Positions 14,292-31,979 of a stretch of DNA of 64,000 nt are shown piece after piece. Every line of letters starts with the position of its first letter. Positions within the stretch are counted from its first letter, which is position 1. Below the pieces are notes generated by a model that had not been told where the DNA came from, made no database searches, and saw only the letters and a program-made list of their open reading frames with translations. Source of the DNA: an uncultured Chloroflexia bacterium (GTDB taxonomy: Bacteria > Chloroflexota > Dehalococcoidia > SM23-28-2 > RBG-16-64-32); assembly GCA_963738925.1 (NCBI GenBank), contig CAVTYE010000002.1, positions 727,905 to 791,904 of the forward strand, in the 5' to 3' direction. Position numbers and translations under genes: made by a program.

Positions 14292-16130
14292 ATGAGACGA
14301 TTTGATCTAAAAGAATTCGTGGACTACTTCCACGAGTCGGCACTCGAGTCGCCTTGGATCCTCTGGGTAGGTTCTGCAATCTCGCGTCCCGCCCCTTCGC
14401 TCCTGCCCATGGCTGAGCCAATCATCCGCGCCCTCTGTGCGCACCTGGCTGATACTCCGGAGACGAATCGGCTACTGGACACGGTAATGAGCGATTTTGC
14501 GCGGTGCGGGTCCCTGGACCTCGTCGCCCCATGGAAAAACGTCGCAATGACCACCGGCTGGCGAATGCCCTTCGAGGCCATCATGGGCGAGATTACCAGT
14601 CAAACCGGCAACCTGGTTCAGTCATTTCTCGATGCCCAGTTTCCGAGAAGCGCCGACTCCGAGCCGAATCTCAACCATGCAGCGATCGCGGCGATCGCCG
14701 AGTCTGGACTCGCCGATATCGTTGTGACAACTAACTTCGACGAGTGCCTGGACAAGATCTGGAGAGGAACAATCGTCGTTCCGACCGATGCCTTTGCTCC
14801 ACCGAACGCGACTCCCGCCCTCGTCAAAGTGCATGGTACGATCAGCGACTTCTCGACGGTCGCCGTCAATCCTGACGCCCTTGCAAAACGTTCGCGCGTG
14901 TCTTGGCAAGCGTCACTCGCGTCCCTCCTCAGGGGCCGCCGCGTTTTGTTCGTTGGTTACGGATTCCAGGACCGCTTTGACCTGACGCCGGCGTTGATAC
15001 AAGCAGAGCGAGACGGCGCCGAATTCTTCTGGGCGAACCAAAGCTTCCCCCCAACTCTCCCTCTCGCGACGATGTCCACAATCGACCACGACTTGAGTGA
15101 TCCAAATAGAAATCTGCTGCTCGCTCTCTGCCCAAATGCCCCCTCCAAAACCTCACCGGCCCGCTGGCCTTCAAACGAAGAGCAGGAGGCTTCTGTGACG
15201 TCGACTCTTCGAGGCCTGGCAGATCAGCCTTCTCTCGCCGAGCGCCTGAAGGCTTTCGCGTCCCTGTACTACTGGTTAGAAGACGGAAAGAGGTCTCTTC
15301 GCTTGTTCCGCGCCGCTCGCTCCGCTGACGCGACCAGCGTCGACACTCACGCACTCGCCCGCGCTTTCCTCCGGGCCAGGCGATATCGTCGGGCTGTCTT
15401 TCTATTTGATCGGATGCTGAACACGGAACTCCCAACAGACCCGGACGAGCGTTTGGACAAGACGATCGATTGGCACTGTGGGGCCGCCCATTGTGCCGCA
15501 GCCGGGGGGCGCGTACTAACAGCGCAGAAGCACTACGAACTGGCGAATGAGTCTCTTCGCTCCAGCGGCAAAGCCGCCGCGGAACTCGATCCCTATTTGA
15601 TGGATCAACTGCTGCGGGGAAGAGCTGGAAACTTGATCCGCCTCGCCGCTCGTTCATGGAGCTTTAGGGAGCGCGACGAATTGCTCTCGGCTGCTGAGGT
15701 GGATCTTGTGCTGCTGGCGTCACAGATCGATCGTCTTGAGTTGCGGGTACAGTACTTGATGAAGAGAGACCTTGCACGAATACAACTCATCCGCGGAAAC
15801 TCCTCGGACGCCGTGCGAGGCTTCGGTGAGGTTAAGGAATTCTTCGAATACTGGGGCGATCCCGATGGCTTGACAGTTGCCATGAGAGACCTGGCAGCCG
15901 CTGGCAAAGTGGGGGGATTCCGCTCGCTCGCACCAGCTGCGGCGGAGGCACGGAAGCGCGGTAGGTGGCTGGAGTGGATTAAGATTGAAGCCACACGCGT
16001 TGGCCTAACTGGCTATGGCCCTCTGGCTCCAGCGCAAGCGCGAATACGCAACGCGGCAATCGCCATCTGGGACGCGATCAAGGAGATGTTGCTAAGCACT
16101 TGGGAGTTTGCACTGGGCCGGAGGCCATAA
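14292..16130 (+). CDS. SIR2-like (SIR2_2 type) domain protein with C-terminal TPR-like helical repeats
   Basis: 612 aa. SIR2_2 motifs: ILWVGSAISRPA, VVTTNFDECL, LVKVHGTISD, VLFVGYGFQDRFD. The C-terminal ~300 aa is Leu/Ala/Arg-rich helical repeat (YYWLEDGKRSLRLFRAARS..., ARAFLRARRYRRAVFLFDRML...). Confidence 0.8.
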   Translation: MRRFDLKEFVDYFHESALESPWILWVGSAISRPAPSLLPMAEPIIRALCAHLADTPETNRLLDTVMSDFARCGSLDLVAPWKNVAMTTGWRMPFEAIMGEITSQTGNLVQSFLDAQFPRSADSEPNLNHAAIAAIAESGLADIVVTTNFDECLDKIWRGTIVVPTDAFAPPNATPALVKVHGTISDFSTVAVNPDALAKRSRVSWQASLASLLRGRRVLFVGYGFQDRFDLTPALIQAERDGAEFFWANQSFPPTLPLATMSTIDHDLSDPNRNLLLALCPNAPSKTSPARWPSNEEQEASVTSTLRGLADQPSLAERLKAFASLYYWLEDGKRSLRLFRAARSADATSVDTHALARAFLRARRYRRAVFLFDRMLNTELPTDPDERLDKTIDWHCGAAHCAAAGGRVLTAQKHYELANESLRSSGKAAAELDPYLMDQLLRGRAGNLIRLAARSWSFRERDELLSAAEVDLVLLASQIDRLELRVQYLMKRDLARIQLIRGNSSDAVRGFGEVKEFFEYWGDPDGLTVAMRDLAAAGKVGGFRSLAPAAAEARKRGRWLEWIKIEATRVGLTGYGPLAPAQARIRNAAIAIWDAIKEMLLSTWEFALGRRP

Positions 16131-16640: not shown

Positions 16641-17343
16641 TCAAGTGGAGCTGAGCCAGGGCATGTCTAGGATGACGGCCTCGTCGGAACGATCGCCCGC
16701 TTGACTGAGCACGACGCTGGCGCCGTCGACGGCAGTGTTGTCTCGCCGGTAGGTCAGGGACAGGCGATATTGACCTTCGACAAGCTGAGATCCAAGGGTT
16801 GTCGCCGCTGGCAAGAGGATGATGGTGTCCAGGCCGTCGGCCCGGCGCAGCACTTTGATCGCCGGCACGCTTGAATAAGCTCCCGGCGGCAGGAATCGGC
16901 GCGAGTGGCCGGCCGGGCCCGCAGCGTCGCGCAACCGCAGTTCGACGGGGAGGCTAACAGGAAGTCGCGCGCGGCCGGAGTCCTGCATAGCGGCGAGGAA
17001 CCGATGCGAGAGGCCGGGTGTTGGCGGCGACGTCCAGTCCTTGCCGTTGCCGGAGTGGATGCGAATACGTGAGCCGGCCGGCACGGGCTCCTCATCTGGC
17101 CCAAAACGGTAATGGGTCGACCAGTCAGCGGCTGTGACGCGGACCGATTGGAAACGAGCGCCAGTGTTGCCCCAGCAATAGAGACCAATCTTGCCCGCCG
17201 TGACGCCGCTATCCAGCACCGAAAACAACCGCACACCGTTTAGATAACCCTCCAACGCGTCGCCGACTATGTCGAGCGTTACCAGGTACCCGCGCCCAAG
17301 CTCGTAAACAGTGTTGTCGCTCCACAATTCACTGACCACCCCA
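16641..17343 (-). pseudogene. 3' fragment of a gene with a concanavalin/LamG-like C-terminal region, truncated by IS copy C
   Basis: The track ORF 16641-17612 is chimeric. Its first ~90 aa are read-through of the IS right end. Genuine sequence starts at 17343: GVVSELWSDNTVYELGRGYLVTLDIVGDALEGYLNGVRLFSVLDSGVTAGKIGLYCWGNTGARFQSVRVTAADW..., and ends at the stop at 16641. Confidence 0.55.
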
Positions 17344-17409
17344 TGTACGTCGTCAGCAAATTCGGACTTTTCGGCCCTTTTGCTAATGGACACTTTTTGG
17401 GGCGGGCTC

Positions 17410-18357
17410 TCACCCGTTGCTGGCTCGATTGTAGTCCCGTCGCTGTTGTAGCGTCCTCTGTTTGACCTCCTTTCTCTTGGCCAGGATCTCGTCCCGGCGA
17501 CCGTAGTAGACATCGGCCGGGGTGACGTTGCCGATGCCCTCGTGGTAGCGGAGGTAGTTGTAGTAGTCAACGAAGTCGGCGAGGGCCTGCTCCAGCACAG
17601 CGGGTGTCTCATAGACCACCAGCTTGACCTGTCCTTTGAGGGTGCGGTGGTAGCGCTCGATCTTGCCGTTCGTCTGAGGGTGATAGGGTGCCGAGACGAT
17701 GTGGCGGATGCCGAGCAGCCTTAGGTAAGCAGCGAAGACGTGGGAGAGGTAGCCGGGTCCGTTGTCGGAGAGGAGTGAGGTGCGGTCGCTGAGCGGAACT
17801 TCGGTCATGCCGGTCTTCTCCACGGCGTCTTGGACCACCTCGATCAAGGAGCCAGCCGTCATGTCCAGTTGCAGGCGCCAGGCCAGGATGAAGCGGCTGT
17901 AGTCGTCGAGGACGGTGACGAGGTAGTAGTAACCCCAGCCGGCGACCTTAAGGTAGGCGCCGTCGGTGGCCCACATCTGGTTGGGGTGCGAGGTCTTGCG
18001 GTAAAACTCCTTCTGGGCGGCGAAGCCCAGCACCTCGGCCGGCTTCACCAGGCCGTGGCGCTTGAGCAGGCGGTAGCAGGAGGACTCAGACACAGAAAAA
18101 GCGCCGGCATCGGTGATGCGCAGCGACAGTTCCCTCGGGCTCCGCTCCGGCGAGGCCCGGGCCAGCGCCAGGATAGATTCCTCTTCCTCTGGCCGCAGCC
18201 TGTTCCAGGGTGTCTTGGGCGGCAGCGTCCGGCCGCCGCGGCTGCACCAGTCGTAGTAGGTCGACTTCGGCAGCCCCAGCTGGGCCAATACTTGCTTGTG
18301 CGGCAGGGGCGAGGCTCGTACGAGCGCGATCAGGGTTGCCTTTTCAGCAGGCTCCAT
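17410..18357 (-). CDS. IS3-family transposase OrfB (rve/DDE)
   Basis: 315 aa. It differs from copy B OrfB at only a few residues (ATLIALV, ...ASNG). Confidence 0.9.
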   Translation of the reverse strand: MEPAEKATLIALVRASPLPHKQVLAQLGLPKSTYYDWCSRGGRTLPPKTPWNRLRPEEEESILALARASPERSPRELSLRITDAGAFSVSESSCYRLLKRHGLVKPAEVLGFAAQKEFYRKTSHPNQMWATDGAYLKVAGWGYYYLVTVLDDYSRFILAWRLQLDMTAGSLIEVVQDAVEKTGMTEVPLSDRTSLLSDNGPGYLSHVFAAYLRLLGIRHIVSAPYHPQTNGKIERYHRTLKGQVKLVVYETPAVLEQALADFVDYYNYLRYHEGIGNVTPADVYYGRRDEILAKRKEVKQRTLQQRRDYNRASNG

Positions 18358-18374
18358 GCGTGCGTACCTCGGCC

Positions 18375-18761
18375 TCAGTCGAAGTCGGGAACGGCTGTTT
18401 TTTTAAGCACCAGGACCTCGAGCGAGAGCTCCGCCACCAGCTGCTTCAACTGCTCGTTCTCCCGCCGGAAGCCGTCAACCTCTGCCCGCGTGGCGTCTCT
18501 TACCGTGTCTGCTTGAAGCCTCGACTTTCCGGCCTCCATGAAGTCCTTGAGCCAGGAGTAGTAGACGTTCGGCTTGATGCCCTCGCTGCGGCAGAGTTCG
18601 CTCACCGGCACCTCGCGCCGGAACCCCTGCAGCACGACCCTCACCTTCTCCTCGGGGGTGAACTTCCGTCTCGTCGCCCTTCTCACCTGGCGGACGAATT
18701 GGCGGGTCTCGTCCGTCTCTGCCTCGGCCAACGCTTCTGCTGTCGAACTCTTCCTCGGCAC
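18375..18761 (-). CDS. IS3-family transposase OrfA
   Basis: 128 aa, near-identical to the OrfA of copies A and B. Confidence 0.9.
   Translation of the reverse strand: MPRKSSTAEALAEAETDETRQFVRQVRRATRRKFTPEEKVRVVLQGFRREVPVSELCRSEGIKPNVYYSWLKDFMEAGKSRLQADTVRDATRAEVDGFRRENEQLKQLVAELSLEVLVLKKTAVPDFD
18398..18404 (-). promoter_or_regulatory. A7 slippery run (copy C; T7 on the plus strand)
   Basis: Same context as in copies A and B. orfB is in the -1 frame relative to orfA. Confidence 0.6.
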
Positions 18762-19116: not shown

Positions 19117-19627
19117 TCACGGTTGACTAGTTGTCCCGCTACTGCTCTGTGGTGACTGAAACATGTTGAGGAAATCCTGCCGATCGTTTAGGCGCACCAG
19201 AACGGGATCTGCACAAGAGGAGGCCTTGCCAAATACTATGGCGTGACGGTCTTCCATCGTCGACAGGACACTGGCAAAGTCATCGCCGATGTAAGTTCCG
19301 AAGGAACTCAATCCCGGTCGAGTCGTATACACGCATCGCTATGATGGTATTGCACTGGTTGAGTATGGACTTCGTCACGTTCGCGGTTCTCTGAGTGACT
19401 AGAAGGCACCCGAGACCGTACTTTCGGCCTTGCAGTATTGCCTTCGCCGTCCCGTTTGAAGCTGTTTGGTCGCCAGGCGCCGCCGTCGAATTCCACTCCG
19501 GGACAAGGGAGTGAGCTTCCTCATAGACGATGCAGACCCGCGCGCGACTGGTCGGTCCGAGCGCCTGCACGAGAGATAGCGCTTCCTCAGTGATGACTCG
19601 TGTGATTTGAGTCGGTGTTAAAGAATA
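19117..19627 (-). pseudogene. 3' fragment of a HerA/DUF87-like ATPase, 5'-truncated and frameshifted
   Basis: Two overlapping frames. The first reads ...LTPTQITRVITEEALSLVQALGPTSRARVCIVYEEAHSLVPEW...AKAILQGRKYGLGCLLVTQRTANVTKSILNQCNTIIAMRVYDSTGIEFL. After a shift near 19280-19332 the second reads YIGDDFASVLSTMEDRHAIVFGKASSCADPVLVRLNDRQDF. The frame is closed upstream by TGA at 19630-19628, so no Walker A region is present. Confidence 0.55.
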
Positions 19628-19813: not shown

Positions 19814-20788
19814 TTGCCGGTTCTGCCAGTCGGGCAAGATGTGCTTGAGGTGAGCATACCCCTCCACCTGCAAGAATCCAGCAACGTCGCGCCTCAGGTT
19901 CTGGCAGATAATGCCTTCCAGGCCCTCGTCTCAGTAAACGGCGATCCATTTGCTGAAGATGGCTCCGCTACTGTCGGACAAACGGTCAGGGTGGAACTCT
20001 CCATACAGCAGACCGATCTGCCGTTGCATGACGTAAAATTTTCCGTGGATCCCGCCATCGTTGGGGAAGACGCGACCATAGAAGGGACCTTACAAGTCGT
20101 CGGCGGTGCGACCAGCTCTTCATCAGCGCACATCAAAGTCCCACCGGGAGTGCGCCTCCAATACAACACCGGATCCACCGTCTACGGGTCCGGCCCCAAC
20201 GAGGAGAACATTACGCAATTGTTGGACATAAATGGAATCTCCGTAGCGACTTGCACAGGAATGCGAATTACGAGTGTCCACGGTGGGGCTTTCCTGCGAC
20301 TCGATTTCACGGTGGTGGATGCCTCGTCGCCGTCTCTCGAGCCGCGATCGAATCCTTGGTTGGCGTCGGTCGTTTATCTGAACGGCAACCGGCTCGAATC
20401 CCCGGCGAGCATTTCGGTGAAGAGCGGAGATCGAGTTGATTTTGACATCGGATTAGGTCCGATGGCGAACGGCTCGTGGCTTCGCAAAGCGACGCTTGAA
20501 ATTGAGACCGCAAAGAAGGGCGACTCGACGGACGTGATCATGATTGCTTCTAGCGAGCATAATGCCGACACCGCCGCTCGGGTTGCAGTCGATCTCCCCG
20601 ACGGGCTCAGCTTGGTGTATCAGAGGGGCACTACCTCGGTTTGGACCCAAGCGGACGGCTGGAAGACGGTGGCCGACGTGGGGGACACTTCCCCCCTTCT
20701 GTCGCAAGGACTCCATCTGAACGACATCGGCGGCTGCAGTGACGATATTCCTGAGGATTGGGCGTACGCACGTTTTATCGTCGAATGA
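19814..20788 (+). CDS. Hypothetical protein (two beta-rich repeats); possibly 5'-truncated
   Basis: 324 aa from a TTG start. The frame is open from 19622 with no ATG or GTG before 19814. It has internal repeat-like segments (VRLQYNTGSTVYGSG / LSLVYQRGTTSVWTQ). Family not recognised. Confidence 0.45.
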   Translation: MPVLPVGQDVLEVSIPLHLQESSNVAPQVLADNAFQALVSVNGDPFAEDGSATVGQTVRVELSIQQTDLPLHDVKFSVDPAIVGEDATIEGTLQVVGGATSSSSAHIKVPPGVRLQYNTGSTVYGSGPNEENITQLLDINGISVATCTGMRITSVHGGAFLRLDFTVVDASSPSLEPRSNPWLASVVYLNGNRLESPASISVKSGDRVDFDIGLGPMANGSWLRKATLEIETAKKGDSTDVIMIASSEHNADTAARVAVDLPDGLSLVYQRGTTSVWTQADGWKTVADVGDTSPLLSQGLHLNDIGGCSDDIPEDWAYARFIVE

Positions 20789-21031: not shown

Positions 21032-22498
21032 TTACATGTAATAACGGTATGACAATTCAGGGTCTACGTCTTCGGGAACCTCCGCCATGATCGGTCCTAC
21101 TACGCCAGCCATTTGCATCGTTATCGGGAATTTGCCTCCAACAGACGCGGCATTCCAATTCATTTTGGTCAACGCCAACGTCTCTTCGCAAACTCTTCGT
21201 ATATCCGCACCCCCGCCCTGTATTTCAATCGGTTGTGGGATATGTGGCCCTGGGTAAGTGCCCCAATCGGGATAAAAGCCCGTCGTGTACAGACAGATCT
21301 TCTCTTCCCCCACAATAAGTGCCGTACCTCGGGGCGGAGGATATTTTGTCTCAGGCATCAAGCGAAGGTCCGATCCCCGAACAGAGAGAAGTTCCAGGGT
21401 TCCAATATCCGCGAAGCCCCGGTGGAAGCCAGCGACTTCGGCATCGGAATAGACGCTTGTCTTGTGGATGGTTACGCGCGTCGGCGTACGACCTGCCCGC
21501 TCGCGATACTCCGACACAACGGCACGGGCTAGATGAGCTGCTTGATCTTCGGAGAGGTGAACCTCCGTTCCATCGGTCCATGGGATACGATCTCCTCGAA
21601 GAACGAATCCATCGATCTCAGAAGAGAATGCCTGGGCAATACTGCTGTACATGAGTGTTCTAGTGGTGGTCACGAGACGATGGAAACTGATGCCGACGTA
21701 GCAAACGTGAGGTGAGTCATACGCTAGTCGCCAGGGTATACCTCCAGCCTTATAAAATAGGCCAACGCCGACGCTCCATGCCCGAGTGGCGGGATCGTCC
21801 TTCTCCGGGCCATCGAGAAACAAATGATCCGTCGCCAGTTGTACTGGCACTCGATCGCGAAGTAGCATCACCTTTCCCTTAATCGCCCGACGCAACGTTC
21901 TGAATGCCAAATGCTCCGCATCTCCAGACTCACCAAAGTCGAATGGCAACGGTAGTTGCTCCCGGCGCCCGCGCGGCGTCAAAGAGAGGCGTTGGGGGCC
22001 CGCCTGCTGAAGTGTAGCGGTAGTCCGCAAGACCTCTTCAGGTATGCCGCAGATGACTAGAGCTGGACCCATTTCCCGCGTTGTGAGAGCGCGAATGCCT
22101 TCTAAATAGAGGTCAACAATCGAGTCGAAGCGAGCATTCTTTGTAAGACCGAGCGCTCGAGCCAGCCGCAAGTCCGAAATCTCGTATTTCCACCGATCAG
22201 CTAATTCAAGAGACGAGTGAAAGACGCTGGCGAACCCGGGAAAGTCCGGGAATCGTCGCCTATTTGTTCCTCCTGATAGCACCGTTCCTCGGCATCTCTC
22301 GAACCAAGAGGTCGCCTTCGCAATCATCGAAGGGGGGCCGACTATACCGATTCTTGTTTGGCTTGGGTGGCCGCCACCATACTGAAGGCTAAATGGGCCA
22401 CTTCTGGTCAGCCCACTCTTTGGGTCAGCGTCTACGTCGCGACCGCCGAACTCTAGTTCAGGTTCAGGCAATTTACTTAGAAGGATTGGGATGGTCAT
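21032..22498 (-). CDS. Short prokaryotic Argonaute (MID-PIWI only)
   Basis: 488 aa, too short to carry N/PAZ domains. The N-terminal PELEFGGRDVDADPKSGLTRSGPF matches the short-pAgo L.F...D...GL..GP pattern. PIWI-like core: HVCYVGISFHRL, RVTIHKTS, KFPITMQMAGVVG. C-terminal ...LSYRYYM. No acidic residue at the GISF position, so an inactive PIWI is likely. The ATG overlaps the upstream stop (ATGA at 22495-22498). Confidence 0.85.
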   Translation of the reverse strand: MTIPILLSKLPEPELEFGGRDVDADPKSGLTRSGPFSLQYGGGHPSQTRIGIVGPPSMIAKATSWFERCRGTVLSGGTNRRRFPDFPGFASVFHSSLELADRWKYEISDLRLARALGLTKNARFDSIVDLYLEGIRALTTREMGPALVICGIPEEVLRTTATLQQAGPQRLSLTPRGRREQLPLPFDFGESGDAEHLAFRTLRRAIKGKVMLLRDRVPVQLATDHLFLDGPEKDDPATRAWSVGVGLFYKAGGIPWRLAYDSPHVCYVGISFHRLVTTTRTLMYSSIAQAFSSEIDGFVLRGDRIPWTDGTEVHLSEDQAAHLARAVVSEYRERAGRTPTRVTIHKTSVYSDAEVAGFHRGFADIGTLELLSVRGSDLRLMPETKYPPPRGTALIVGEEKICLYTTGFYPDWGTYPGPHIPQPIEIQGGGADIRRVCEETLALTKMNWNAASVGGKFPITMQMAGVVGPIMAEVPEDVDPELSYRYYM

Positions 22499-25065
22499 GT
22501 CTTGATTCTGGGCTCGTCCACGTTTATTCCGTCCTGCGGCATGTCGGCGGCCAATGGACGCGCACGAATGACGATGGGGTTGTCGCCTGTCAGCGTAAGA
22601 CGAATCTCATTCTCCTCAGGCTCCAATATCGATCGCCAGAAAAAGACATCTGCAAGTGCCTTCTGGTTGTAGTCCTCGGTGCTGTTTGACGTTGCGAGGG
22701 AGGTAGCTTCTCGCCCTCGAATGCGATCACGATCACCGTCGAGCGTAAAGACGTATGTGGGTGCAATTCTGAGGCACCAATAGCCAGAGATGTGCTCGAA
22801 ATGAAACTCAGCCGCCTTGTGAATGCAATAAGTTCGCGTTGCACCAGGCCACCACGCGACGCGACGACTAGGTTGATGAACGCGCGCCTGGTACTTAATC
22901 CTTCGTACGGGGCCCTTTGTGCATGGAAAATACGCTCGGCGGCGCTTCCAATCAACGCGTAATCCTTGTCGGCGTAGGACAGTAAGTAGTGTCTCGTTTA
23001 GAAGCTCAGTAATAATGTTCTTGCCGTCCGTTCGATCTTGGAAGTCACGCATGTCGAGCAGCGTGACGTTCGGGCCATCGAGCGGACCCACATAGAGTGC
23101 GGGAAACAGAGCGGGATTTACCAAGGCAAACAGTTGACCTTCGTGCGGAACGAACGGAGGACACGCCGCACGTTCACGAGTTGGCAAATCACGTCGGTCT
23201 CTCAACGTGGTTGGCATCGCGAAGAGGGTTCGCGGAAGCTCGATGACTTCAAATAGGTTAGTGTGTGCTCGAACCTGTAAATCGGATGGACGAGCCGTCG
23301 ACGTGCGAGAATCAACCGCAGCTTGGCGAGGTATCAGGCGTGCCGTGAAAGCGGTATTCTGAACTGAAACCTCGACTAGTAATTGTCCGTCAATTGCTTC
23401 CATGGATGCCAATGCATCTGACAGTCCAGATCCCGCCTTGTCTATAAGACCATTGCCGAACCAAAGGTCGGCTATCACAGGATTGCGGTATCCAGTGATC
23501 CCTGGCCCCCTCTCTCCACGAGCAATTCGTCGTTGCAGAAGATCAGGTGGTATGCGCGACTCGGACTCGTCATAGTCTTCGCCCAGGAGCCGACGCAGCA
23601 ATGAGGGTTCGATTCCTCCGGGACTCTCGATGGATATCTGATTCGTTTCGACGCGAATTACGATCGGGTCTGGCGATTCATAGCTCCGGTGAACTAAAGC
23701 GTTTGCGAGTACTTCTTTGATTGCATCTCGGGAATAGCGTCTGACCGTTTTAGAGCGTTGCCCCTTCATCCGGACGGGTGGATTCACATCTGATATGACG
23801 CTCATGGCGGATTCGAACTGTGTCCAGAGCGTGCCATCGAGGGCCGTGGGGGGTTTTCCTGGAAGTCGAATCTCTACCCAGGCGCCTCGTGCCACAACGC
23901 GAGGATCTTTCTCGAGCAAGAGGACACCTGCGTTTGTAAGGTTGGTTGCATCGCCGTCGCGAACCGCAAGTCCCGCCGTGGCCAAAAGATTGAAGGCAGC
24001 ATCTCTTTCTGTGGAGTCCGAGGAAAATCGCTCCGCATAGTCCGTCATTTCGATTGGCAGCGTGTCAGGAGCGCGCACTGGCGAGGTCGGCAATCTTAAG
24101 TCAAATGTCAGCGGCGCGCCGGTGGGATATGTATAGCCCTGAGCGCCCTCTGTCCCCGAGGACCGCCAGCACTCACGAAGCTCCGTCAGCAGCGCGTCAA
24201 AGTCGGTAATCGCGACCGAATTGAAGTTGCGTCCTAAAGCATCTGCCAAGTCAGATACCATGGGTGCCAATCCGGAGCTTGGCCTTCGTGAGCACCAGTA
24301 GACCCCATGTTTGAAACGATCGACAGACTGCACGTTCTGAAACAAAAGGTCATGCATTACAGACCTCTCAGAACCACGGTATCCAACAACGACCAATGGG
24401 TGGTCGCGCAGCATGGGAAGTAGACGAGCAACTAGAAGCTCATCCAACGATTCTGTCTCACCCGGGAGGTTGCGATCTTTGTAGTATTCGGCTTGGCCGT
24501 GAAGATAAATGACCTGGGGATATGCGGGCGCCGTTGTGATCGCAACATACTCTTCTTGTTTACCGATCGTGATAAGCGACCCGGGGCCATAAGCGGTGCG
24601 AATCAAATCGTCAAAGTTAGTCGTCAATACGGAATGAATGATTCGTCGCCGCAGTAGCGAAGCGAGACACTGGTATCCGACGTTGGGAGGAGCGGTCTGC
24701 TTTAGTAGGCTTAGAAGAAATCGTCGGCGAAATTCTCTCGGACTGTCTAGCAACCGAATGAGATCGGGGAACATGTCTGCCCAATCTCTGTCCGCACGGT
24801 ACCAGTGTTCCGATTCGAGCACCGTGGATATGTCGCCGGGGCGAATGCGCGGATCGTCAGGTAGCCATCCTTGTCGTTTGGCGTAAAGCCAACGAGCACC
24901 AAGTCGAACCAGATCGCCGCTCGCTGGAATTCCGGAGCTAACGGACGCACCCGCCCCCAGCAGAAAGATGGGGTCCGGGCCATCGATAAGGCGTGAGAAG
25001 AGGCTCCTGACGTCCAGCGGTTTAGTTGCAGCGATTGTGTCAGACATGGAGTGTGTCGCTGCCAT
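22495..25065 (-). CDS. SIR2 / HATPase_c_4-like / putative APAZ protein (pAgo partner), 856 aa
   Basis: N-terminal SIR2_2 motifs: IFLLGAGASVSSGIP, VLTTNFDDLI, VIYLHGQAEY, LVVVGYRGSERS. Central segment: AIKEVLANALVHRSYESPDPIVIRVETNQISIESPGG ... YRNPVIADLWFGNGLIDKAGSGLSDAL. This is the HATPase_c_4 signature seen in Schlafen/AlbA_2-type proteins. The C-terminal ~250 aa (RAYFPCTKGPVRRIKYQ...WCLRIAPTYVFTLDGD...) lies where APAZ is expected in pAgo partners. The APAZ assignment rests on position only. Confidence 0.8.
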   Translation of the reverse strand: MAATHSMSDTIAATKPLDVRSLFSRLIDGPDPIFLLGAGASVSSGIPASGDLVRLGARWLYAKRQGWLPDDPRIRPGDISTVLESEHWYRADRDWADMFPDLIRLLDSPREFRRRFLLSLLKQTAPPNVGYQCLASLLRRRIIHSVLTTNFDDLIRTAYGPGSLITIGKQEEYVAITTAPAYPQVIYLHGQAEYYKDRNLPGETESLDELLVARLLPMLRDHPLVVVGYRGSERSVMHDLLFQNVQSVDRFKHGVYWCSRRPSSGLAPMVSDLADALGRNFNSVAITDFDALLTELRECWRSSGTEGAQGYTYPTGAPLTFDLRLPTSPVRAPDTLPIEMTDYAERFSSDSTERDAAFNLLATAGLAVRDGDATNLTNAGVLLLEKDPRVVARGAWVEIRLPGKPPTALDGTLWTQFESAMSVISDVNPPVRMKGQRSKTVRRYSRDAIKEVLANALVHRSYESPDPIVIRVETNQISIESPGGIEPSLLRRLLGEDYDESESRIPPDLLQRRIARGERGPGITGYRNPVIADLWFGNGLIDKAGSGLSDALASMEAIDGQLLVEVSVQNTAFTARLIPRQAAVDSRTSTARPSDLQVRAHTNLFEVIELPRTLFAMPTTLRDRRDLPTRERAACPPFVPHEGQLFALVNPALFPALYVGPLDGPNVTLLDMRDFQDRTDGKNIITELLNETLLTVLRRQGLRVDWKRRRAYFPCTKGPVRRIKYQARVHQPSRRVAWWPGATRTYCIHKAAEFHFEHISGYWCLRIAPTYVFTLDGDRDRIRGREATSLATSNSTEDYNQKALADVFFWRSILEPEENEIRLTLTGDNPIVIRARPLAADMPQDGINVDEPRIKT

Positions 25066-25243: not shown

Positions 25244-26656
25244 ATGGAAAGTGACCTCGACCTAAAGAGGGCTCGCGCGTCGCTAGATGAGTTTGCGGCA
25301 CTCCTCGCGGCCAAACCAAAGGAATCCGAGTGGCAGCGTCTCTTCTCATCAAATCCACACATCCTCTCGCAAGCGCTACCCTTGCGCCTGGAACCAGGCG
25401 ACATCAGACCGGGTGGTAGACCGGGTCAGAGCGAGGCAGACTTCATAATCCACCCTCGGGCCGTTGGTCCGATCCCGTTTTACGGCGTAATTGAACTGAA
25501 GCGCAACGATGCTTCGGTCGTGCGAGTCAAGCGAGCCGACCTCTTGGAGTTGACCAGTGACGCACAGACAGCAGTTAGGCAGGCCCAAAATTACGCGCGA
25601 AAACTGCGCAAGGCACTTCTTGTGGGAGGTGAGCGTTCACTGATCCTCGGAAACCCAGCCTACAACTTCATCATCATGGGTATGTCCGATGAGATCGCAA
25701 GAAAGGTAGCGGAAGAAGTCTTGGCCAAACAAATGGCGGGACTTCTCCCTGGTGGATGTCACCTGGTCAACTACGACCAACTATTCGAGCAATTCAAGGC
25801 AAGCATCCCTCCGACCTTCCTCCAACTCGTTCCTGCTTTGCCATCGTTTCCTAGGCCACGTTGGGATTTGAACCAAACATCGCGCCTCCTGGATCGCCTG
25901 GTCCAATCGAAACCCACCAGACCCGCGGAGCCTTGGGCGGCGGCAAGATCCCCGAGCGGTAGCGGACGGTTCTGTGTAGTCGCGGATGGATTGGCAAGCT
26001 CATCCGCGTCAAGCGAGGAACTGATGCGGGACATTTCGTCCAAATCATCAAATGACATTCAGTTCCGCGCCGTCAGCTACAGCGGAGTAGGCCGGAGCTA
26101 TGGCCGATATGACACGCATAGGTCTCTGAGTTCGCTGGCAAGATCTCTACGAGAATATCTGCCTCAAAGGCCGTTCGACTCGACAATCTCCTATGTCGGC
26201 ATTGGCATCGGCTCTAATGTAATTGTTGGAGGCCTTGCGAGGGCGATGTCGGAACTCCCAACGTCCGAGTCCTCCCGATGGGCTTCGTCAATTCGCAGGC
26301 TCGTGCTCGTCGGACCTATGTTCAGAGCTCCTACGTGGATGCAGGATTGGCTCCGGGACGGCGCTCGAGTAATTCCGGCGCCAATGGCTGAGTTGATGGC
26401 GGGTGGTGACGGGCCATACACCGTTGAAGGTCTACGAATAATACGGCAATTGGGAATACCCGTGACAGTAATCCTTAGCGTTGCCGATGGATTGGCAGAG
26501 TACGATGAGGGCCTTATTGGCAGCCTCACTCAAATGGGCGCCGAGGTGATTAGGGTGACAGCGGAATCGACAGGCCGTGAGCCATTCGCGGCTCACTTCT
26601 CGACCTATCGGTCACCTTCGGTGATGCGGATCGTTGCTTCCCTGGTTAACAGTTAG
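25244..26656 (+). CDS. DUF4263 (Shedu-type PD-(D/E)xK nuclease)-like N-terminal domain fused to an unknown ~240-aa C-terminal domain
   Basis: 470 aa. The N-terminal half has ESEWQRLFSSNPHILSQAL...SEADFIIH...FYGVIELKRNDASVV...AVRQAQNYARKL...YNFIIMG. This matches the DUF4263 pattern (E..W..f...nP.il ... D ... vEiK ... Q ... iiG). The C-terminal half (ISYVGIGIGSNVIVGGLARAM, RRLVLVGPMFRAPTW) looks alpha/beta, but no clean GxSxG nucleophile elbow was seen. Confidence 0.65.
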   Translation: MESDLDLKRARASLDEFAALLAAKPKESEWQRLFSSNPHILSQALPLRLEPGDIRPGGRPGQSEADFIIHPRAVGPIPFYGVIELKRNDASVVRVKRADLLELTSDAQTAVRQAQNYARKLRKALLVGGERSLILGNPAYNFIIMGMSDEIARKVAEEVLAKQMAGLLPGGCHLVNYDQLFEQFKASIPPTFLQLVPALPSFPRPRWDLNQTSRLLDRLVQSKPTRPAEPWAAARSPSGSGRFCVVADGLASSSASSEELMRDISSKSSNDIQFRAVSYSGVGRSYGRYDTHRSLSSLARSLREYLPQRPFDSTISYVGIGIGSNVIVGGLARAMSELPTSESSRWASSIRRLVLVGPMFRAPTWMQDWLRDGARVIPAPMAELMAGGDGPYTVEGLRIIRQLGIPVTVILSVADGLAEYDEGLIGSLTQMGAEVIRVTAESTGREPFAAHFSTYRSPSVMRIVASLVNS

Positions 26657-26769
26657 CGCCATCCCGCATCAAACTTCGGAGGACAAACAGACGTAAGGCT
26701 TCCTCGAGCCTGGGCATGGGTGCACAGGAAAGTCGAGTCAGCCGATAGTCTTAGCTCCGGGCTTGCCGC

Positions 26770-27284
26770 CTAGACTGCGCCTTTGCGTCGGTTGTCCTCC
26801 AGGCACAGCATCTGGCAGTTGGCTCCGTTTGTCTTCCCGCGCTTCGACCACGGGGTGATGTGGTCCGCTTCCATCTCGCCGATCTCGAAATGCTTGCCGC
26901 ACTTGGGACAGGTTGTAGAGGGTGCCCCAGTCGATGGTCTTCATCTCCTTGCGATACGTGGTGAACGTCAACTCCACCCACGAGATGACGGCTTGGAAGT
27001 ATGACCACAGCTCGTTGGCGTTCGGATCATGCTGGTGGTCCGACATGTACTGCTCGATCTTGTCGCCGAACAGCCACGATATGGCCGTTTCCAGAAAATC
27101 CTGGCGGATCGGTGTGCCAGTCACGTACTTGCTGCCTATGGCTCTGTCCGATGAGGTCTTCACCCTCTGCCGTCAAGGGGCGGCGCCAACGGTGAGCATA
27201 AACGACCTCCGTCCCGTAGGGCCCCTTCCATTCATCCCTCCCCGATCGCGCCTCTTTGCCCTTGACGCCATTCACCTCGCTCAC
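26770..27284 (-). pseudogene. Decayed DUF262-associated HNH endonuclease gene (frameshifts and internal deletion)
   Basis: One frame gives ...FLETAISWLFGDKIEQYMSDHQHDPNANELWSYFQAVISWVELTFTTYRKEMKTIDWGTLYNL. A shifted frame continues CPKCGKHFEIGEMEADHITPWSKRGKTNGANCQMLCLEDNRRKGAV, an HNH motif with its stop at 26772-26770. A further shift occurs near 27150. No DGQQR-type DUF262 N-terminal domain is present. Confidence 0.6.
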
Positions 27285-27453: not shown

Positions 27454-30400
27454 ATGCCTTTGCAGACTCTGGATCCAGATCTCGATCTTCTTCGGGAGGA
27501 GTACGTTCTCGTCCAAGCATGGAAGAAGACATCAAACTACATTCGCCAGCACAACTGGTATGCAGATACTGTTGAGCTCGATCTGGCGAGCTCTGATCTC
27601 CAAGGGTTTCTTCAACAGCTCAAACAACGTCTGACCGAACCGAGTCAATGGAGATCGGGACTATTGCGACTTGTTCCCGCACCAAAGAATCAGAAGTGGG
27701 TCATTGCGAATGGCGCCTGGACTCCCGCGGAGTCCGTAGAACCAATCGATAGGCTCCGTCCGCTTGCCAATGTCAGACTCATCGATCAAGTTATCGCCAC
27801 CGCCATTGCCTTGTGTATTGCGGACCGAGTCGAGACTATACAAGGAGTTCCACGAGTCTCAATAACTGACAACCTGGCGAGAAGGCGAGTCATATCCTAT
27901 GGCAATCGGCTCTTCTGTCAGGAGGTAGAAGGCGAACTTTTGCATCGCTGGGGGTCGTCGACCTTGTATCGCCGCTTCTTTGAAGACTACCGCAACTTTC
28001 TGAAGCGGCCACAGGCCGTCGCGGAGTCTCTTAGAACGCAGCCAAACTCCGATGTGGTCATAGTTAAGTCAGACCTCAGAAATTTTTACGATCGCGTTTC
28101 GCCGGCGCTATTGCAGGCCAAACTTGCGGCTCTTATGCGTCCCTATGACGATGCGGGGTTCCTTGATCTCGCCAGTCGGGTCCTAAACTGGCACTGGGAT
28201 GCCCAGGACCTACCGCAAGTCCAGGATTACGCGCGCCGAGCCGGTATCCAAGACTTCAACGTTGTCGCATTGCCGCAAGGCCTAGCAACAGCAGGGTTCT
28301 TCGCGAACGTGGCGCTCCTTGACTTCGATGATGCTCTACGAAACTCACTCGGCGAAGAAATCGAGCCCGGAGTAAAGCTCGAGGACGCCTGCCGATATGT
28401 GGACGACCTCCGCCTAGTCTTGATGGTCGAGGGCTCGCGGCAACTCAGTGAAATTAAGACAATCGTTTATCGTTGGGTTCAGAACTTGCTGGACCTGAAT
28501 GCTGAAGACTTGCTCGCATCCGAGGAAAAGACAGTACCAGCGCCATTTGGCGCGGCGGAACGGCCATTGGTGCCGCAAAGCTGGAAGATGAACCGCATCC
28601 AGCATGCAATATCAGGGGGATTCGATCCCACTCAAGCGGAGGAGATTCTTGCGTCTGTACAGGCTCTAGTGCAATCTCAGCAGAGGCTCGCCGAACGGCT
28701 TGAAGTGGCAGATAGCCAAGATGAGCCGTGGCGAATGTCGCCAGCCCCAGATGTGGAAGACGACACGGTGTCAAGATTCGCTGCTCATCGCTTCAGGACC
28801 ACTTATCGGTCGCTACGTCCGCTCCTCGAAGATACTGCTCCGCAAGATGAGGCCCCTCATCGCTCAGGTTTAGAGCCGCTACGCACGAAAGCAGAACTTG
28901 ACGCGGAAGCCCAAGCATTCGCCTTCGACCTTGTAGAAAAATGGGTGCGCGATCCTTCACATGTCCGACTTCTTCGAATTGGATTGGACATCTGGCCGGA
29001 TTCACAGCTCCTCGACAGCGTTTTGGAGCTCCTGCGGCCCTACACGACGGCTAGACGAGCGACTTCAGCCGACTTCGTCGCTTGGTACGCCCTGGCGGAA
29101 GTCTTCCGCGCTGGCGCTACCGAAACCGGCTTGGTTACTGACGAGGAGATGTTGCCAGATGCCGTCGACTTCGCGGGTTTCAAGGCCACCCTTGCTAACG
29201 AGGCTCGCCGACTTCTGTCCCTGCCGGTATCCAGCGTGCCATGGTACGTGCGACAGCAAGCCTTGCTATATTTGGCCGCCTTCGACCCGAACGACGTCGA
29301 CCTTGGGCGCGACCGAACCGAGGAAACACGAAGGTACCGAGACTTAATTCGGTTCCTGAATCGCGGAGGGAAAGGATGGAGCGAGCGGAAGTTTGCCACG
29401 TACTCAGTCTTGGCGAGAAAGAGCTTCCTTTCAGCCGGCGATGCAATCAAGCTTGTTCGCGGCCGACTGAATCGAGGAATTCTGAACATGATCGGAGCGA
29501 TGGATCCATCATTCGCAGCTGAGATTGTCGCCACCGGACCATCCACCGGTATTTCGCGTCGACTATCCCGCGACCTAGGAGTGGAGCCGAAGCCTGGGAC
29601 TCTCCGGTCGCTTGTCTTGGGTGAGTCAAAGGGCAAAGTTCGGAATGAACGGACGATCCTGCGATTCGCGGAGCAGTTCTTATCGCAGGCACCCGGACTC
29701 ACGGACGAGGTAATAACACCCTCTGATGCATTTCTGGAGCTGTCCGATAGCAGGACGCGAGATGAGACAGACGTATTGCTTACTCGCTTGAAACTCAAGC
29801 CACTTAGAGTTCAGCGTGAACAGTCGATGTATCGTCCGCCGGACTGGTGCGATCCAACTGAACGATGGCGGTTTCAATTGGGCTATCTCATACGGTTTAT
29901 TCTCGCTGGCCAACCTGATTTCACAAGAATTGTCAGACGTTCTAGGCGTATCCAGGCCGAGGGTGGCCGCTATCGCCGACCAGAGAGCAATTGGTACCAG
30001 CGCCTGTACGGCATGTTCACGGCGCACGCAGCATTTGGTGACGACTGGTTAGCCGTGTCCGACTGGCTGGAACTCTTTCTCTTTGAGTTGCTCCTTTGGC
30101 CCGGATGTGAGCCATCCGATCTAGATTTCGTTCGCCGAGGACGTTTAGCAACGTTACGTGCCGTGCGAAAGAGGCTAAGCGACTTGGAAGAGCTTCAGGG
30201 ACCGGCTCGCAGCGTCTTCATTCTTCCCCTGAATGTACGTCGACCGGACAGCACGGCGGAAGACAGGAAGCTGAGGGGTTGCGTCGTCCAGACCGTTTTA
30301 CCCCGGATGAAAGATCTTCTGAAAGACGCTACGGTCTCTGACCCAGCTGCAAGACGCGTACAACGCCGTCATCTCTCCACGATTCTAGAGTCCGTTAAAA

Positions 30401-31152
30401 GAATGCTGGCGGTCAGAGGTACGCACGAACCCGACGGATCGAGGCTGGATTGGTTGATTCTTCCGGAGCTTTCTGTTCACCCGGACGACGTCGGAACCCA
30501 TTTGAGGCGCTTTGCGCTTCAGCACAAGACAATAATTCTCGCCGGGCTCACTTACCAGAGTCAGGGCCCAGGCGGGCCACTCGTCAACATGGGAGTATGG
30601 ATCGTCCCCGAATTGTCGGCGAGCCGCGGTTTGCAGATTAGGCAGCGCTACCAAGGCAAGCAGTATCTAGCACAGGATGAGAAGGGCCTGGGCATTCAGG
30701 GTTATCGACCATGTCAGTGGATCATCCAGTATCCGTGGGCGAATGATAAACCGCCCCTTCGCCTCACAGCCTCAATCTGTTACGACGCAACCGACGTTGA
30801 TCTTGCATCGGATCTTCGTGAAAACTCCGACGTGTACGCGATCCCCGCATTAAATAAGGACGTCAACACGTTTGACCAGATGGCGCTCTCTCTTCAGTAC
30901 CACATGTTCCAGATGGTCATTGTCGCAAATAATGGGGAATTTGGCGGGAGCAATGCCTATGTGCCCTATCGGGAGCAATACGATCGCCAAGTCTTCCATC
31001 TTCACGGGCAACCGCAGGCGTCGATAGGATTCATCGAAATCGATCCGATCGAAGACTTCCTCTCCCGAAAGAAGATCGGGAGCAAGAAGTCCGCCGCGCC
31101 GTCTCGCCCTGTCGGTCGGGCGTTTAAGTATCCCCCTGCAGGACTGACCTAG
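27454..31152 (+). CDS. Reverse transcriptase fused to a C-terminal nitrilase (C-N hydrolase) domain; DRT type 1 / UG1-like
   Basis: 1,232 aa. RT motifs: RPLANVRLIDQVIATAIALCIADRVE (motifs 1-2), VVIVKSDLRNFYDRVS (A), LPQGLATAGFFANVAL (B), CRYVDDLRLV (C; YVDD codons at 28396-28407). A long helical middle region follows. The C-terminal nitrilase-like triad context is WLILPELSVH (Glu codon 30466-30468), RYQGKQYLAQDE (Lys) and LTASICYDATD (Cys codon 30778-30780). Confidence 0.85.
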   Translation: MPLQTLDPDLDLLREEYVLVQAWKKTSNYIRQHNWYADTVELDLASSDLQGFLQQLKQRLTEPSQWRSGLLRLVPAPKNQKWVIANGAWTPAESVEPIDRLRPLANVRLIDQVIATAIALCIADRVETIQGVPRVSITDNLARRRVISYGNRLFCQEVEGELLHRWGSSTLYRRFFEDYRNFLKRPQAVAESLRTQPNSDVVIVKSDLRNFYDRVSPALLQAKLAALMRPYDDAGFLDLASRVLNWHWDAQDLPQVQDYARRAGIQDFNVVALPQGLATAGFFANVALLDFDDALRNSLGEEIEPGVKLEDACRYVDDLRLVLMVEGSRQLSEIKTIVYRWVQNLLDLNAEDLLASEEKTVPAPFGAAERPLVPQSWKMNRIQHAISGGFDPTQAEEILASVQALVQSQQRLAERLEVADSQDEPWRMSPAPDVEDDTVSRFAAHRFRTTYRSLRPLLEDTAPQDEAPHRSGLEPLRTKAELDAEAQAFAFDLVEKWVRDPSHVRLLRIGLDIWPDSQLLDSVLELLRPYTTARRATSADFVAWYALAEVFRAGATETGLVTDEEMLPDAVDFAGFKATLANEARRLLSLPVSSVPWYVRQQALLYLAAFDPNDVDLGRDRTEETRRYRDLIRFLNRGGKGWSERKFATYSVLARKSFLSAGDAIKLVRGRLNRGILNMIGAMDPSFAAEIVATGPSTGISRRLSRDLGVEPKPGTLRSLVLGESKGKVRNERTILRFAEQFLSQAPGLTDEVITPSDAFLELSDSRTRDETDVLLTRLKLKPLRVQREQSMYRPPDWCDPTERWRFQLGYLIRFILAGQPDFTRIVRRSRRIQAEGGRYRRPESNWYQRLYGMFTAHAAFGDDWLAVSDWLELFLFELLLWPGCEPSDLDFVRRGRLATLRAVRKRLSDLEELQGPARSVFILPLNVRRPDSTAEDRKLRGCVVQTVLPRMKDLLKDATVSDPAARRVQRRHLSTILESVKRMLAVRGTHEPDGSRLDWLILPELSVHPDDVGTHLRRFALQHKTIILAGLTYQSQGPGGPLVNMGVWIVPELSASRGLQIRQRYQGKQYLAQDEKGLGIQGYRPCQWIIQYPWANDKPPLRLTASICYDATDVDLASDLRENSDVYAIPALNKDVNTFDQMALSLQYHMFQMVIVANNGEFGGSNAYVPYREQYDRQVFHLHGQPQASIGFIEIDPIEDFLSRKKIGSKKSAAPSRPVGRAFKYPPAGLT

Positions 31153-31157
31153 TAGAA

Positions 31158-31979
31158 CTAAGCAGATTCGCCGGTTTGCGACTCGCCAATCACGGCCTTC
31201 ACGTCATCTGGGAAGTCTCCCTTCAGGATCCAGGTCAAATAATCGGGGGCTTCTGACTTCACCTGTGTTAGTGGTACTCCCCTGTATTTTCCAAAGTTCA
31301 AACAGATTTCATCGTTTGCTCTGATTAGCAGGCCGTGCTCGTCTATCCAATTCTCGTCGACCCTTCTCGGCGCAGAAATCTGATCAAGCTCCCGCAGTTC
31401 GCGCGTGAGATCGGGATACCGCTCCAGTTGTCCGAGTAGCACGTCCATGGAAGCCAGCGTGTCGGCCTCTGATGAGTGGGCGCCGTTGTGCTCTCGCCCT
31501 CGATAGAACTGGAGCGCTGCTGTCAGATCTCGAGGCTCGCGCTCGAAATAGATCGCGAGCGCATCGACGATGGCGCGATCGTCAATAGAAAACCAGTGCC
31601 CAGCTCGGCGGAACTCAGCGCTGAGTACTTTCAAATCGAATCGTGCTATTCCGAACCCAGCCAAATCGCATCCATCAAGATGCCTAGCCAATGAACGCGC
31701 TATTCTCCGAAATGTTGGCTCGTGTTCGACGTCGGCAGTAGTTATGCCGTGAACGGCGGTAGCTTCCTCCGGCACTGGCATTTCCGGATTCACCCTGCGC
31801 GTAACGACATTCAAGGCACCAGATGGAGACACCTTCGCAACTGAGACCTCCACTACGCGCGCGGTCATTGGGTTAGTACCCGTGGTTTCGAGATCGATAA
31901 AAGCCAATGGGCGGTCTAATTTCAAACTCCGAGCAAGTTTCGCCGCCACCTCGATATATGGGGAATTTGCTTCTGCCAT
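31158..31979 (-). CDS. DEDDh 3'-5' exonuclease (DnaQ/epsilon-like) with ExoX-like C-terminal motif
   Basis: 273 aa. Exo I AFIDLETTG, Exo II LAGFGIARFDLKVL, Exo III HSSEADTLAS. C-terminal FGKYRGVPLTQV...PDYLTWIL. Its stop lies 5 nt from the RT-nitrilase stop (convergent). Confidence 0.85.
   Translation of the reverse strand: MAEANSPYIEVAAKLARSLKLDRPLAFIDLETTGTNPMTARVVEVSVAKVSPSGALNVVTRRVNPEMPVPEEATAVHGITTADVEHEPTFRRIARSLARHLDGCDLAGFGIARFDLKVLSAEFRRAGHWFSIDDRAIVDALAIYFEREPRDLTAALQFYRGREHNGAHSSEADTLASMDVLLGQLERYPDLTRELRELDQISAPRRVDENWIDEHGLLIRANDEICLNFGKYRGVPLTQVKSEAPDYLTWILKGDFPDDVKAVIGESQTGESA

Follow-up and report, generated by a model that had tools for sequence, protein, structure and literature searches.

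A Short Argonaute Operon with a Predicted GHKL ATPase Module Built into its SIR2-APAZ Partner

Short Argonaute systems and the locus under study

In the SPARSA system of Geobacter sulfurreducens (clades S1A/S1B; PDB 8jkz, 8in8 and 8y80), the short prokaryotic Argonaute (pAgo) GsAgo and its partner GsSir2-APAZ form a heterodimer that is mediated by APAZ. Recognition of single-stranded DNA by means of a guide RNA leads to pAgo-pAgo dimerization and tetramerization of SIR2, by which H186 is positioned for NAD+ hydrolysis (Cui et al. 2024). The nuclease systems of clade S2B, SPARHA (HNH-APAZ; PDB 9om4) and SPARDA (DREN-APAZ; PDB 9qbp, 9qbl and 9jsb), are activated by target-induced filaments. Clade S2B also "includes a subgroup of SIR2 effectors" (Prostova et al. 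2023), DHS-like-APAZ partners have been mentioned in it (Koopal et al. 2022), and, according to the SPARHA paper, it has "additional uncharacterized effectors". A different design is seen in RzAgo, the SLFN-pAgo of Runella zeae. This long-B pAgo is a single chain of 1,071-1,187 amino acids (aa) that includes a Schlafen tRNA nuclease. Its PF13749 domain binds and hydrolyzes ATP, with E314 and N318 coordinating the gamma-phosphate and Mg, and ATP binding brings about tetramerization, mainly via the ATPase domain, and thereby activation of the effector (bioRxiv 10.64898/2026.05.29.728809). A 64,000-nucleotide stretch of DNA from an uncultured Chloroflexia bacterium (contig CAVTYE010000002.1, positions 727,905 to 791,904; the whole stretch is called the window in the following) contains an intact bacterial operon for Argonaute defence. 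It consists of two genes, and the SIR2 partner of its short pAgo has a built-in GHKL ATPase module. We read it, with a probability of roughly 0.6, as a short-pAgo defence system of clade S2B in which an inserted GHKL domain of the PF13749 type would act beside the SIR2 NADase as an ATP switch that licenses assembly.

Gene organization and architecture of the partner protein

Both genes are located on the minus strand. The upstream gene (22495..25065) encodes the SIR2-GHKL-APAZ effector and partner protein of 856 aa and the downstream gene (21032..22498) the short MID-PIWI pAgo of 488 aa. The stop codon of the first overlaps the start codon of the second at 22495..22498 (minus strand), where the bases TCAT of the plus strand read ATGA on the coding strand. 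A two-gene pair with an ATGA overlap had been described in an earlier note made from the sequence of the window; both open reading frames (ORFs) are intact, and the peptide strings quoted in that note (TTNFD, YLHG, ALVHRSYESPDPIVIRVETNQISIESPGG and YRNPVIADLWFGNGLIDKAGSGLSDAL) are all found in the translation. A scan of the operon for sigma-70 promoters returned 0 promoter-like sites, and terminator-like sites occurred only at chance level.

The 856-aa protein is composed of three folded modules, SIR2 (aa 17-303), a GHKL/Bergerat ATPase (aa 338-580) and APAZ (aa 581-843), in agreement with the earlier proposal of a three-module SIR2 partner in a short-pAgo operon. A full-length AlphaFold2 (AF2) model, computed from an alignment of 54 sequences, has a mean predicted local distance difference test (pLDDT) value of 82.6. 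The SIR2 NADase domain with its catalytic residues N150 and H189 (24157..25017, minus strand) was recognized by Pfam SIR2_2, which matches aa 145-263 above the gathering score (E 4e-6), and by phmmer, which aligns aa 32-301 with GsSir2 (8jkz/8in8) at E 7e-18. In the latter alignment N150 and H189 take the positions of GsSir2 N142 and H186, which are catalytic residues (Cui et al. 2024); retention of the Asn and the His in an N-terminal SIR2_2 domain, as noted earlier, is thus borne out. N150, D152 and H189 are unchanged in alignments of 54 and of 43 homologues. NCBIfam gave only sirtuin matches, all of them below threshold. A linker of low confidence (aa 304-337; 24055..24156, minus strand; pLDDT 57-63), mostly coil in the full-length model, separates SIR2 from the central module.

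With SPARSA the system shares the pairing of a short pAgo gene with a SIR2-APAZ gene, a homologous SIR2 domain and the same catalytic Asn and His. The GsSir2-APAZ chains have 584-587 aa, consistent with the 550-600 aa given in the earlier note for canonical SIR2-APAZ proteins. The partner protein of the window is longer because it contains in addition the GHKL module of about 250 aa and the linker.

A predicted GHKL ATPase between SIR2 and APAZ

The central module begins with a subdomain (aa 338-427; 23785..24054, minus strand) in which a helix-helix-hairpin-helix arrangement is followed by a beta/alpha unit; the subdomain is supported by a model of the module, Foldseek and tblastn. It continues with the GHKL/Bergerat ATP-binding core (aa 428-580; 23326..23784, minus strand), which was recognized by Pfam, Foldseek and the invariant motifs. 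When aa 310-585 were modelled alone, the pLDDT was 90.8 and the predicted template modelling (pTM) score 0.89. The top Foldseek match of the module was DIP2311, itself composed of AlbA_2 and HATPase_c_4 (3lmm; E 5.5e-12, about 275 columns, query-normalized template modelling (TM) score, TMq, 0.61), and the subdomain of aa 338-427 is aligned with DIP2311 within these columns. The next matches, at E values of about 1e-4, were the CA domains of histidine kinases (CusS, HK853, PhoQ, CheA P4) and the pyruvate dehydrogenase kinases (PDK) PDK2/4. Because the folds matched are those of 3lmm, histidine kinases and PDK, the module is assigned to the Bergerat-fold GHKL domains with an N-terminal subdomain. 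The core contains the N-box E451-x3-N455, HRxY at 459-462, a G1-like P482-G483-G484, YRN at 526-528 and the G2 box G545-S546-G547, and a weak Pfam HATPase_c match was also found in it. The Pfam match to HATPase_c_4, weak as it is (see below), is upheld since structure prediction, Foldseek and the invariant motifs agree. By its modelled fold the module is a Bergerat-type GHKL domain of the PF13749 type, and ATP binding is predicted from the intact ATP/Mg motifs.

The block has a confident fold of its own in addition to the Foldseek matches and motifs, which sustains the view of the earlier note that an independent HATPase_c_4-type domain lies between the NADase and APAZ. The same note had raised the possibility that aa ~330-600 are merely the normal N-terminal extension of APAZ. 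This is refuted, because aa 310-585 fold alone as a separate GHKL domain and the homology to APAZ starts only at about aa 581-592.

E451, N455, H459, G483, R527, N528, G545 and G547 are unchanged both in an alignment of 54 proteins and in one of 43 genome-derived sequences, and this invariance holds down to about 27% identity to the 856-aa protein. R460, Y462, P482, G484, Y526 and S546 are unchanged in the 54-protein alignment; in the 43 genome-derived sequences they are at least 90% conserved or variable. The conservation pattern bears on the question of whether the GHKL domain is just a constitutive scaffold or dimerization spacer, in which ATP may be a cofactor but the nucleotide state regulates nothing, and activation is driven purely by guide and target as in SPARSA. 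SPARSA, SPARDA and SPARHA all activate without an ATPase, and the hydrolysis-dead RzAgo mutant E314A still oligomerizes, if less efficiently (bioRxiv 10.64898/2026.05.29.728809). However, the catalytic E451 and the Mg-binding N455 are strictly invariant across lineages at 27-50% identity, which argues for selection on nucleotide chemistry and not on the fold alone, and the module is kept in about 60 clusters (50% identity) as well as in a variant with split genes. A scaffold of this kind is considered unlikely, and an ATP switch remains the preferred reading.

The ATPase half of a Schlatpase

The motifs ALxExxxNALxH, xPG(G) and RNxxxAxxxxxxxxxExxGxG are common to the central module, DIP2311 and the free proteins composed of AlbA_2 and HATPase_c_4 (free Schlatpases) that were returned by the genome scan. 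The free proteins carry AlbA_2 at about aa 8-129, and those whose sequences were read extend some 90-100 aa beyond GHKL, whereas in the 856-aa protein GHKL is preceded by SIR2 and followed by APAZ. They resemble the 856-aa protein only from their aa ~167-192 onward, which corresponds to aa ~339-377 of the latter, and tblastn matches start at about aa 352. No Pfam match to AlbA_2 (PF04326) was obtained in the 856-aa protein even at E values up to 1, and the predicted model leaves only a coil of 34 aa between SIR2 and the module. Since AlbA_2 is not matched, the similarity to the free proteins starts after their AlbA_2 and only the coil precedes the module, the protein carries only the ATPase half of a Schlatpase. 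A Schlafen domain, for which there would be no space, was ruled out, and the earlier description of the block as a module of the Schlafen/AlbA_2 type had to be abandoned. The name "Schlatpase" for the whole supradomain comes from the RzAgo preprint (bioRxiv 10.64898/2026.05.29.728809); in the 856-aa protein SIR2 occupies the position of the Schlafen nuclease.

The order of effector, PF13749 GHKL ATPase and Argonaute scaffold is the same as in RzAgo, and the E-x3-N motif is shared, E451-x3-N455 corresponding to RzAgo E314/N318. The window system differs from RzAgo by its SIR2 effector, the absence of AlbA_2 and the split of the Argonaute core into APAZ and a separate short pAgo. A PADLOC pAgo model with 1121 positions, PDLC02394, which judged by its length probably represents the SLFN-pAgo family, weakly matches the N-box region (aa 444-485; E 3e-4). 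Relatives of the 856-aa protein match this model better, over profile positions 172-380.

According to the earlier note, the module could be a second domain for nucleic-acid sensing or for regulation. As a sensing or binding domain it would touch the guide, the target or further nucleic acid of the invader, and the NADase would thus receive another recognition signal. Schlafen/AlbA_2 is the usual fusion partner of the module's free relatives, most of which, according to the RzAgo preprint, have no other domain or a short C-terminal helix-turn-helix (HTH) domain (bioRxiv 10.64898/2026.05.29.728809). The helix-helix-hairpin-helix layout of aa 338-384 is winged-helix-like in the predicted model, and the historical Pfam name points to a DNA helicase. 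Against these hints, the best fold matches after 3lmm come from histidine kinases and PDK, namely from their ATP-binding domains, and not from nucleic-acid binders, the invariant residues are those of ATP/Mg motifs, and neither AlbA_2 nor HTH was detected in the 856-aa protein. Moreover, the equivalent N-terminal subdomain of RzAgo makes protein-protein contacts (bioRxiv 10.64898/2026.05.29.728809, Extended Data Figure 7 legend). A second nucleic-acid sensor thus finds no support in a Bergerat ATP-binding fold with intact ATP/Mg motifs, whose one characterized relative linked to an Argonaute, that of RzAgo, is an ATP-driven oligomerization switch. We regard it as quite improbable and retain the ATP switch as the preferred role of the module.

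The short Argonaute, the APAZ domain and their clade

The 488-aa protein matches the PADLOC profile pAgo_I (PDLC02376) end to end at E 1.7e-126, with aa 8-488 aligned to profile positions 4-455 of 455, and it spans solved short pAgos as a whole, for example 9jsb (aa 11-487 versus 9-484). These end-to-end matches to short pAgos establish it as an Argonaute with MID and PIWI only, devoid of an N or PAZ domain, as the earlier note had recognized. The pocket for the 5' end in the MID domain is formed by R203-K207-Q220-K250, which fits the pattern (Y/R/H)-K-Q-K. Across 44 aligned members of the pAgo family K207, Q220 and K250 are unchanged, and position 203 is occupied by R in 34 and by Y in 9 sequences (together 43 of the 44). 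The R-K type of MID motif, found in most members of the window family, is shared with SPARDA, where it has been discussed for NbaAgo. The PIWI domain is assumed to have no catalytic DEDX tetrad, given its close homology to inactive short pAgos. VGISF, read by eye at the place where active Argonautes show GxDV, suggests that the first catalytic Asp is lost.

The APAZ domain (aa 581-843; 22537..23325, minus strand), the pAgo-docking analogue of N/L1/L2, was recognized by phmmer, Foldseek and PADLOC. With phmmer, aa 592-840 match the HNH-APAZ protein of SPARHA (9om4_A) at E 1.8e-11, with further matches to DREN-APAZ (9qbp/9qbl), and Foldseek superimposes the domain on 9om4_A with a target-normalized TM score (TMt) of 0.73 and a root-mean-square deviation of 4.2. 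The C-terminal 260 aa or so, where the earlier note expected APAZ, hence do contain it. PADLOC models named REase-PNTD1-PNTD2 match the same part at E 6e-24. A sequence match of GsSir2-APAZ to the APAZ part of the 856-aa protein was not obtained with phmmer.

The best PDB sequence match of the pAgo is likewise to SPARHA (9om4_B; E 5e-74, 252.6 bits). The bit scores for SPARTA (about 139) and SPARDA (about 135) are lower, and GsAgo of SPARSA, with 81.5 bits, is the solved short pAgo that matches most weakly. Judged by this ranking of scores only, pAgo and APAZ fit best the nuclease systems of clade S2B and not S1 SPARSA; yet the effectors of SPARHA and SPARDA are HNH and DREN nucleases, unlike the SIR2 NADase and the GHKL ATPase found here. 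The term "SPARSA-like" used in the earlier note can be kept for the SIR2 effector but not for pAgo and APAZ. Of the features of SPARSA sensu stricto (S1A/S1B) the window system has the catalytic Asn and His of SIR2, but it has neither a two-module partner of about 580 aa nor a SIR2-APAZ-pAgo fusion, and, by the same ranking of scores, its pAgo and APAZ are not of the S1 lineage. Since the likeness to SPARSA is confined to the effector and pAgo and APAZ fit S2B, the sequences suggest that effectors have been shuffled between clades of short pAgos.

Distribution of the family and previous listings

The 856-aa protein matches the PADLOC model PDLC02402, "Aga_SIR2-PNTD1-PNTD2" (876 positions), at E 3.5e-209 and 695 bits, with aa 22-824 aligned to profile positions 5-815. 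A sibling model, PDLC02418 or "Aga_SIR2-Kinase-PNTD1-PNTD2", covers aa 409-820. No relevant paper was found for the PADLOC domain name "PNTD1", and an SiAgo preprint contains no definition of it. Among the APAZ proteins that Ryazansky et al. (2018) listed from short-pAgo operons, those of the orthogroup og_40 are described as "SIR2_1 fused with Schlafen". The orthogroup may correspond to the SIR2-GHKL-APAZ family, although the label og_40 was not found in the supplements; by "Schlafen" the ATPase part seems to be meant, since no AlbA_2 is detectable in the 856-aa protein. The APAZ alignment of the same study includes WP_059000176.1 of Leptolyngbya sp. NIES-2104 (Ryazansky et al. 2018), which is homologous over its full length (36% identity) and whose gene is followed directly by a pAgo. 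The two PADLOC models and og_40 are bioinformatic listings in which no function or mechanism is given to the central module. The earlier belief that the architecture is uncharacterized stands in that no experiments were found in the literature searched, but the proteins had already been catalogued by PADLOC and in the 2018 APAZ alignment. The three-module architecture is therefore not new; with this locus, which is intact, the catalogued family gains a further member.

A word-indexed search yielded at least 120 relatives of roughly 700-1050 aa, most of which cover at least 91% of the query and two of which cover 80-81%. Nearly all of them have a precomputed SIR2_2 assignment and more than half also HATPase_c_4. 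In an exhaustive search of 1.84 billion representatives, 115 proteins were found at E values up to 1e-30, about 60 of which, each standing for a cluster at 50% identity, match over nearly the full length and share the layout. Among contigs of one genome per species, all 43 loci with a near full-length homologue have a pAgo as the next gene downstream, in the same orientation, and in most of them the gene junctions are tight or overlapping. These loci belong to about 10 phyla (Chloroflexota, Poribacteria, Acidobacteriota, Bacteroidota, Planctomycetota, Actinomycetota, Myxococcota, Cyanobacteria, Alpha-/Gammaproteobacteria). That the system is unique to the source genome is ruled out by the relatives and the related loci.

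In some full-length relatives (P0128, P0134, P0155 and P0049) SIR2-GHKL-APAZ is preceded at the N-terminus by an enzyme domain as the fourth module, namely a calcineurin-like phosphoesterase (Metallophos) in a protein of 1267 aa, a PNP_UDP_1 nucleoside phosphorylase (1221 aa), a trypsin-like protease (1096 aa) or a TIR domain (1053 aa). Other relatives have N-terminal extensions of 100-270 aa without a Pfam match. A natural split was observed at one locus (L083, 3976-8257), where a 341-aa SIR2_2 gene ends at the start of a 585-aa GHKL-APAZ gene, the two sharing base 5001; the end of the latter is overlapped by a 500-aa gene that is presumed to encode the pAgo. The split falls in the region that matches the SIR2-GHKL linker (aa 304-337), and the locus may have three genuine genes or owe its split to a frameshift. 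At another locus (L084, 2876-8488) a transposase-like HTH ORF lies between the SIR2 gene and the gene for GHKL-APAZ.

Proposed mechanism

As in the solved relatives, the pAgo and the SIR2-GHKL-APAZ protein probably form a heterodimer via APAZ. The pAgo would load a 5'-phosphorylated guide in the R/K/Q/K pocket of MID and recognize complementary invader DNA; because the pocket is intact, the same sensing logic as in the relatives is expected. Binding of the target would then lead to a higher-order assembly, which could be a tetramer like that of SPARSA or a filament like those of the S2B systems SPARHA and SPARDA. In the assembly the SIR2 domains would be juxtaposed and N150 and H189 aligned, with the result that NAD+ is depleted and the infection aborted. 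The same NADase output as in the relatives is likely since both residues are intact, and the predicted NAD+ depletion would be triggered by the target and depend on oligomerization, as in SPARSA. By analogy with RzAgo, the GHKL module would most likely serve as an ATP-dependent dimerization or oligomerization switch that licenses or shapes the assembly.

Several observations weigh against this reading. The Pfam HATPase_c_4 match (aa 518-569; E 4e-5, 23.9 bits) lies below the gathering score of 26, although many homologues, unlike the 856-aa protein, pass the PF13749 gathering threshold. The G1 box reads xxPGG in place of the classical DxGxG; an xxPGG-type G1 nevertheless looks typical of PF13749 proteins, the free AlbA_2 and HATPase_c_4 proteins whose sequences were read having SNPG, SSPG or SPGG at this place. 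In the full-length AF2 model the pTM score is only 0.56, so that the placement of the domains relative to each other is uncertain. The GHKL domain of RzAgo acts in concert with a Schlafen domain; the 856-aa protein has none, and the role of its GHKL module may differ. Finally, biochemical or genetic work on any SIR2-GHKL-APAZ member was not found in the literature searched, outside of which lie many subscription journals.

A further possibility is that the system acts mainly by something other than NAD+ depletion, SIR2 being regulatory or NAD-sensing, or GHKL acting in the manner of a kinase on a protein or nucleotide substrate. The label "Kinase" given to the module by PADLOC and the PDK-type protein kinases among the fold matches could be taken in this sense, and the additional N-terminal enzymes of the relatives (Metallophos, PNP_UDP_1, trypsin-like, TIR) suggest diversified outputs. 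On the other hand, the catalytic Asn and His of SIR2 do not vary among the homologues and coincide with those of the SPARSA NADase, a phospho-acceptor domain of the HisKA type was not detected in the 856-aa protein by Pfam, and the characterized PF13749 domain hydrolyzes ATP to ADP and phosphate with no known phospho-acceptor (bioRxiv 10.64898/2026.05.29.728809). An output of this kind is highly improbable, and NAD+ depletion under the control of an ATP switch is the preferred reading.

Mechanistic work on the NADase systems of short pAgos (SPARSA, SPARTA) describes activation by nucleic acid only. A conserved and apparently catalytic ATPase in a widespread branch of S2B (about 60 clusters, about ten phyla) suggests additional, nucleotide-dependent control. 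We tentatively propose, at somewhat less than even odds, that SIR2-GHKL-APAZ/pAgo represents a mechanistically distinct subtype of Argonaute immunity, in which the NADase requires two inputs, guide-directed recognition of DNA and the nucleotide state of GHKL. If this is true, abortive infection would be coupled to the ATP status of the cell, or hydrolysis would time a reset. The split variant (SIR2 / GHKL-APAZ / pAgo) and the four-domain relatives would then make GHKL-APAZ a general adaptor for diverse effectors. The SIR2 version offers a tractable case with regard to the generality of the ATP-driven tetramerization switch of RzAgo.

Genomic neighbourhood

The operon is located in a stretch of about 32 kb with a GC content of about 55%, which changes to about 68% in the flank at a step near 32 kb. 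No tRNA gene was found at this boundary; the only tRNA gene of the window (Arg-CCG) is at 44785-44859. Because the stretch of about 55% GC contains other defence and conflict genes, a role of the operon in defence and its horizontal acquisition are supported, and the stretch is a probable horizontally acquired defence island.

On the far side of the pAgo gene, an RHS-repeat protein of 2255 aa (7012-13779, plus strand; 18 RHS repeats and DUF6531) is followed by a second, unrelated SIR2_2 protein of 612 aa with a weak Dsr1-like match (14292-16130, plus strand). An ORF of about 320 aa without a Pfam match (16641-17612, minus strand) overlaps the integrase ORF of an IS3-family element over some 200 bp, and part of it may be spurious. 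The IS3 element (17410-18761, minus strand) comprises this ORF, identified by Pfam rve, and an upstream ORF of 128 aa (18375-18761), which is taken to be orfA. Between the element and the pAgo gene there are a HerA fragment of 96 aa (19280-19570, minus strand; PADLOC HerA E 5e-18, profile positions 416-491 of 576) and an ORF of about 320 aa without a Pfam or PADLOC match (19814-20788, plus strand).

On the other side, a Shedu-like gene of 470 aa (25244-26656, plus strand; SduA_C E 6e-6, PADLOC SduA E 2e-6) is divergent from the SIR2-GHKL-APAZ gene. The match to the SduA nuclease domain is confined to the N-terminal 120 aa or so, the other approximately 340 aa being without a match, and the protein may be an unusual Shedu variant. 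It is followed by a fragment of a type II restriction enzyme (REase) of 141 aa (26738-27163, minus strand; E 2e-23). About 2.4 kb from the pAgo operon and on the opposite strand lies a full-length gene for a DRT1a reverse transcriptase-nitrilase of 1232 aa (27454-31152, plus strand), with a PADLOC Drt1a match (PDLC03745, E = 0, aa 1-1230) and a weak Pfam RVT_1 match. A DEDDh exonuclease gene (31158-31979; PADLOC PDC-S48 and DEDDh matches) is situated at the edge of the island. The HerA and REase remnants are signs of decay and turnover of the island.

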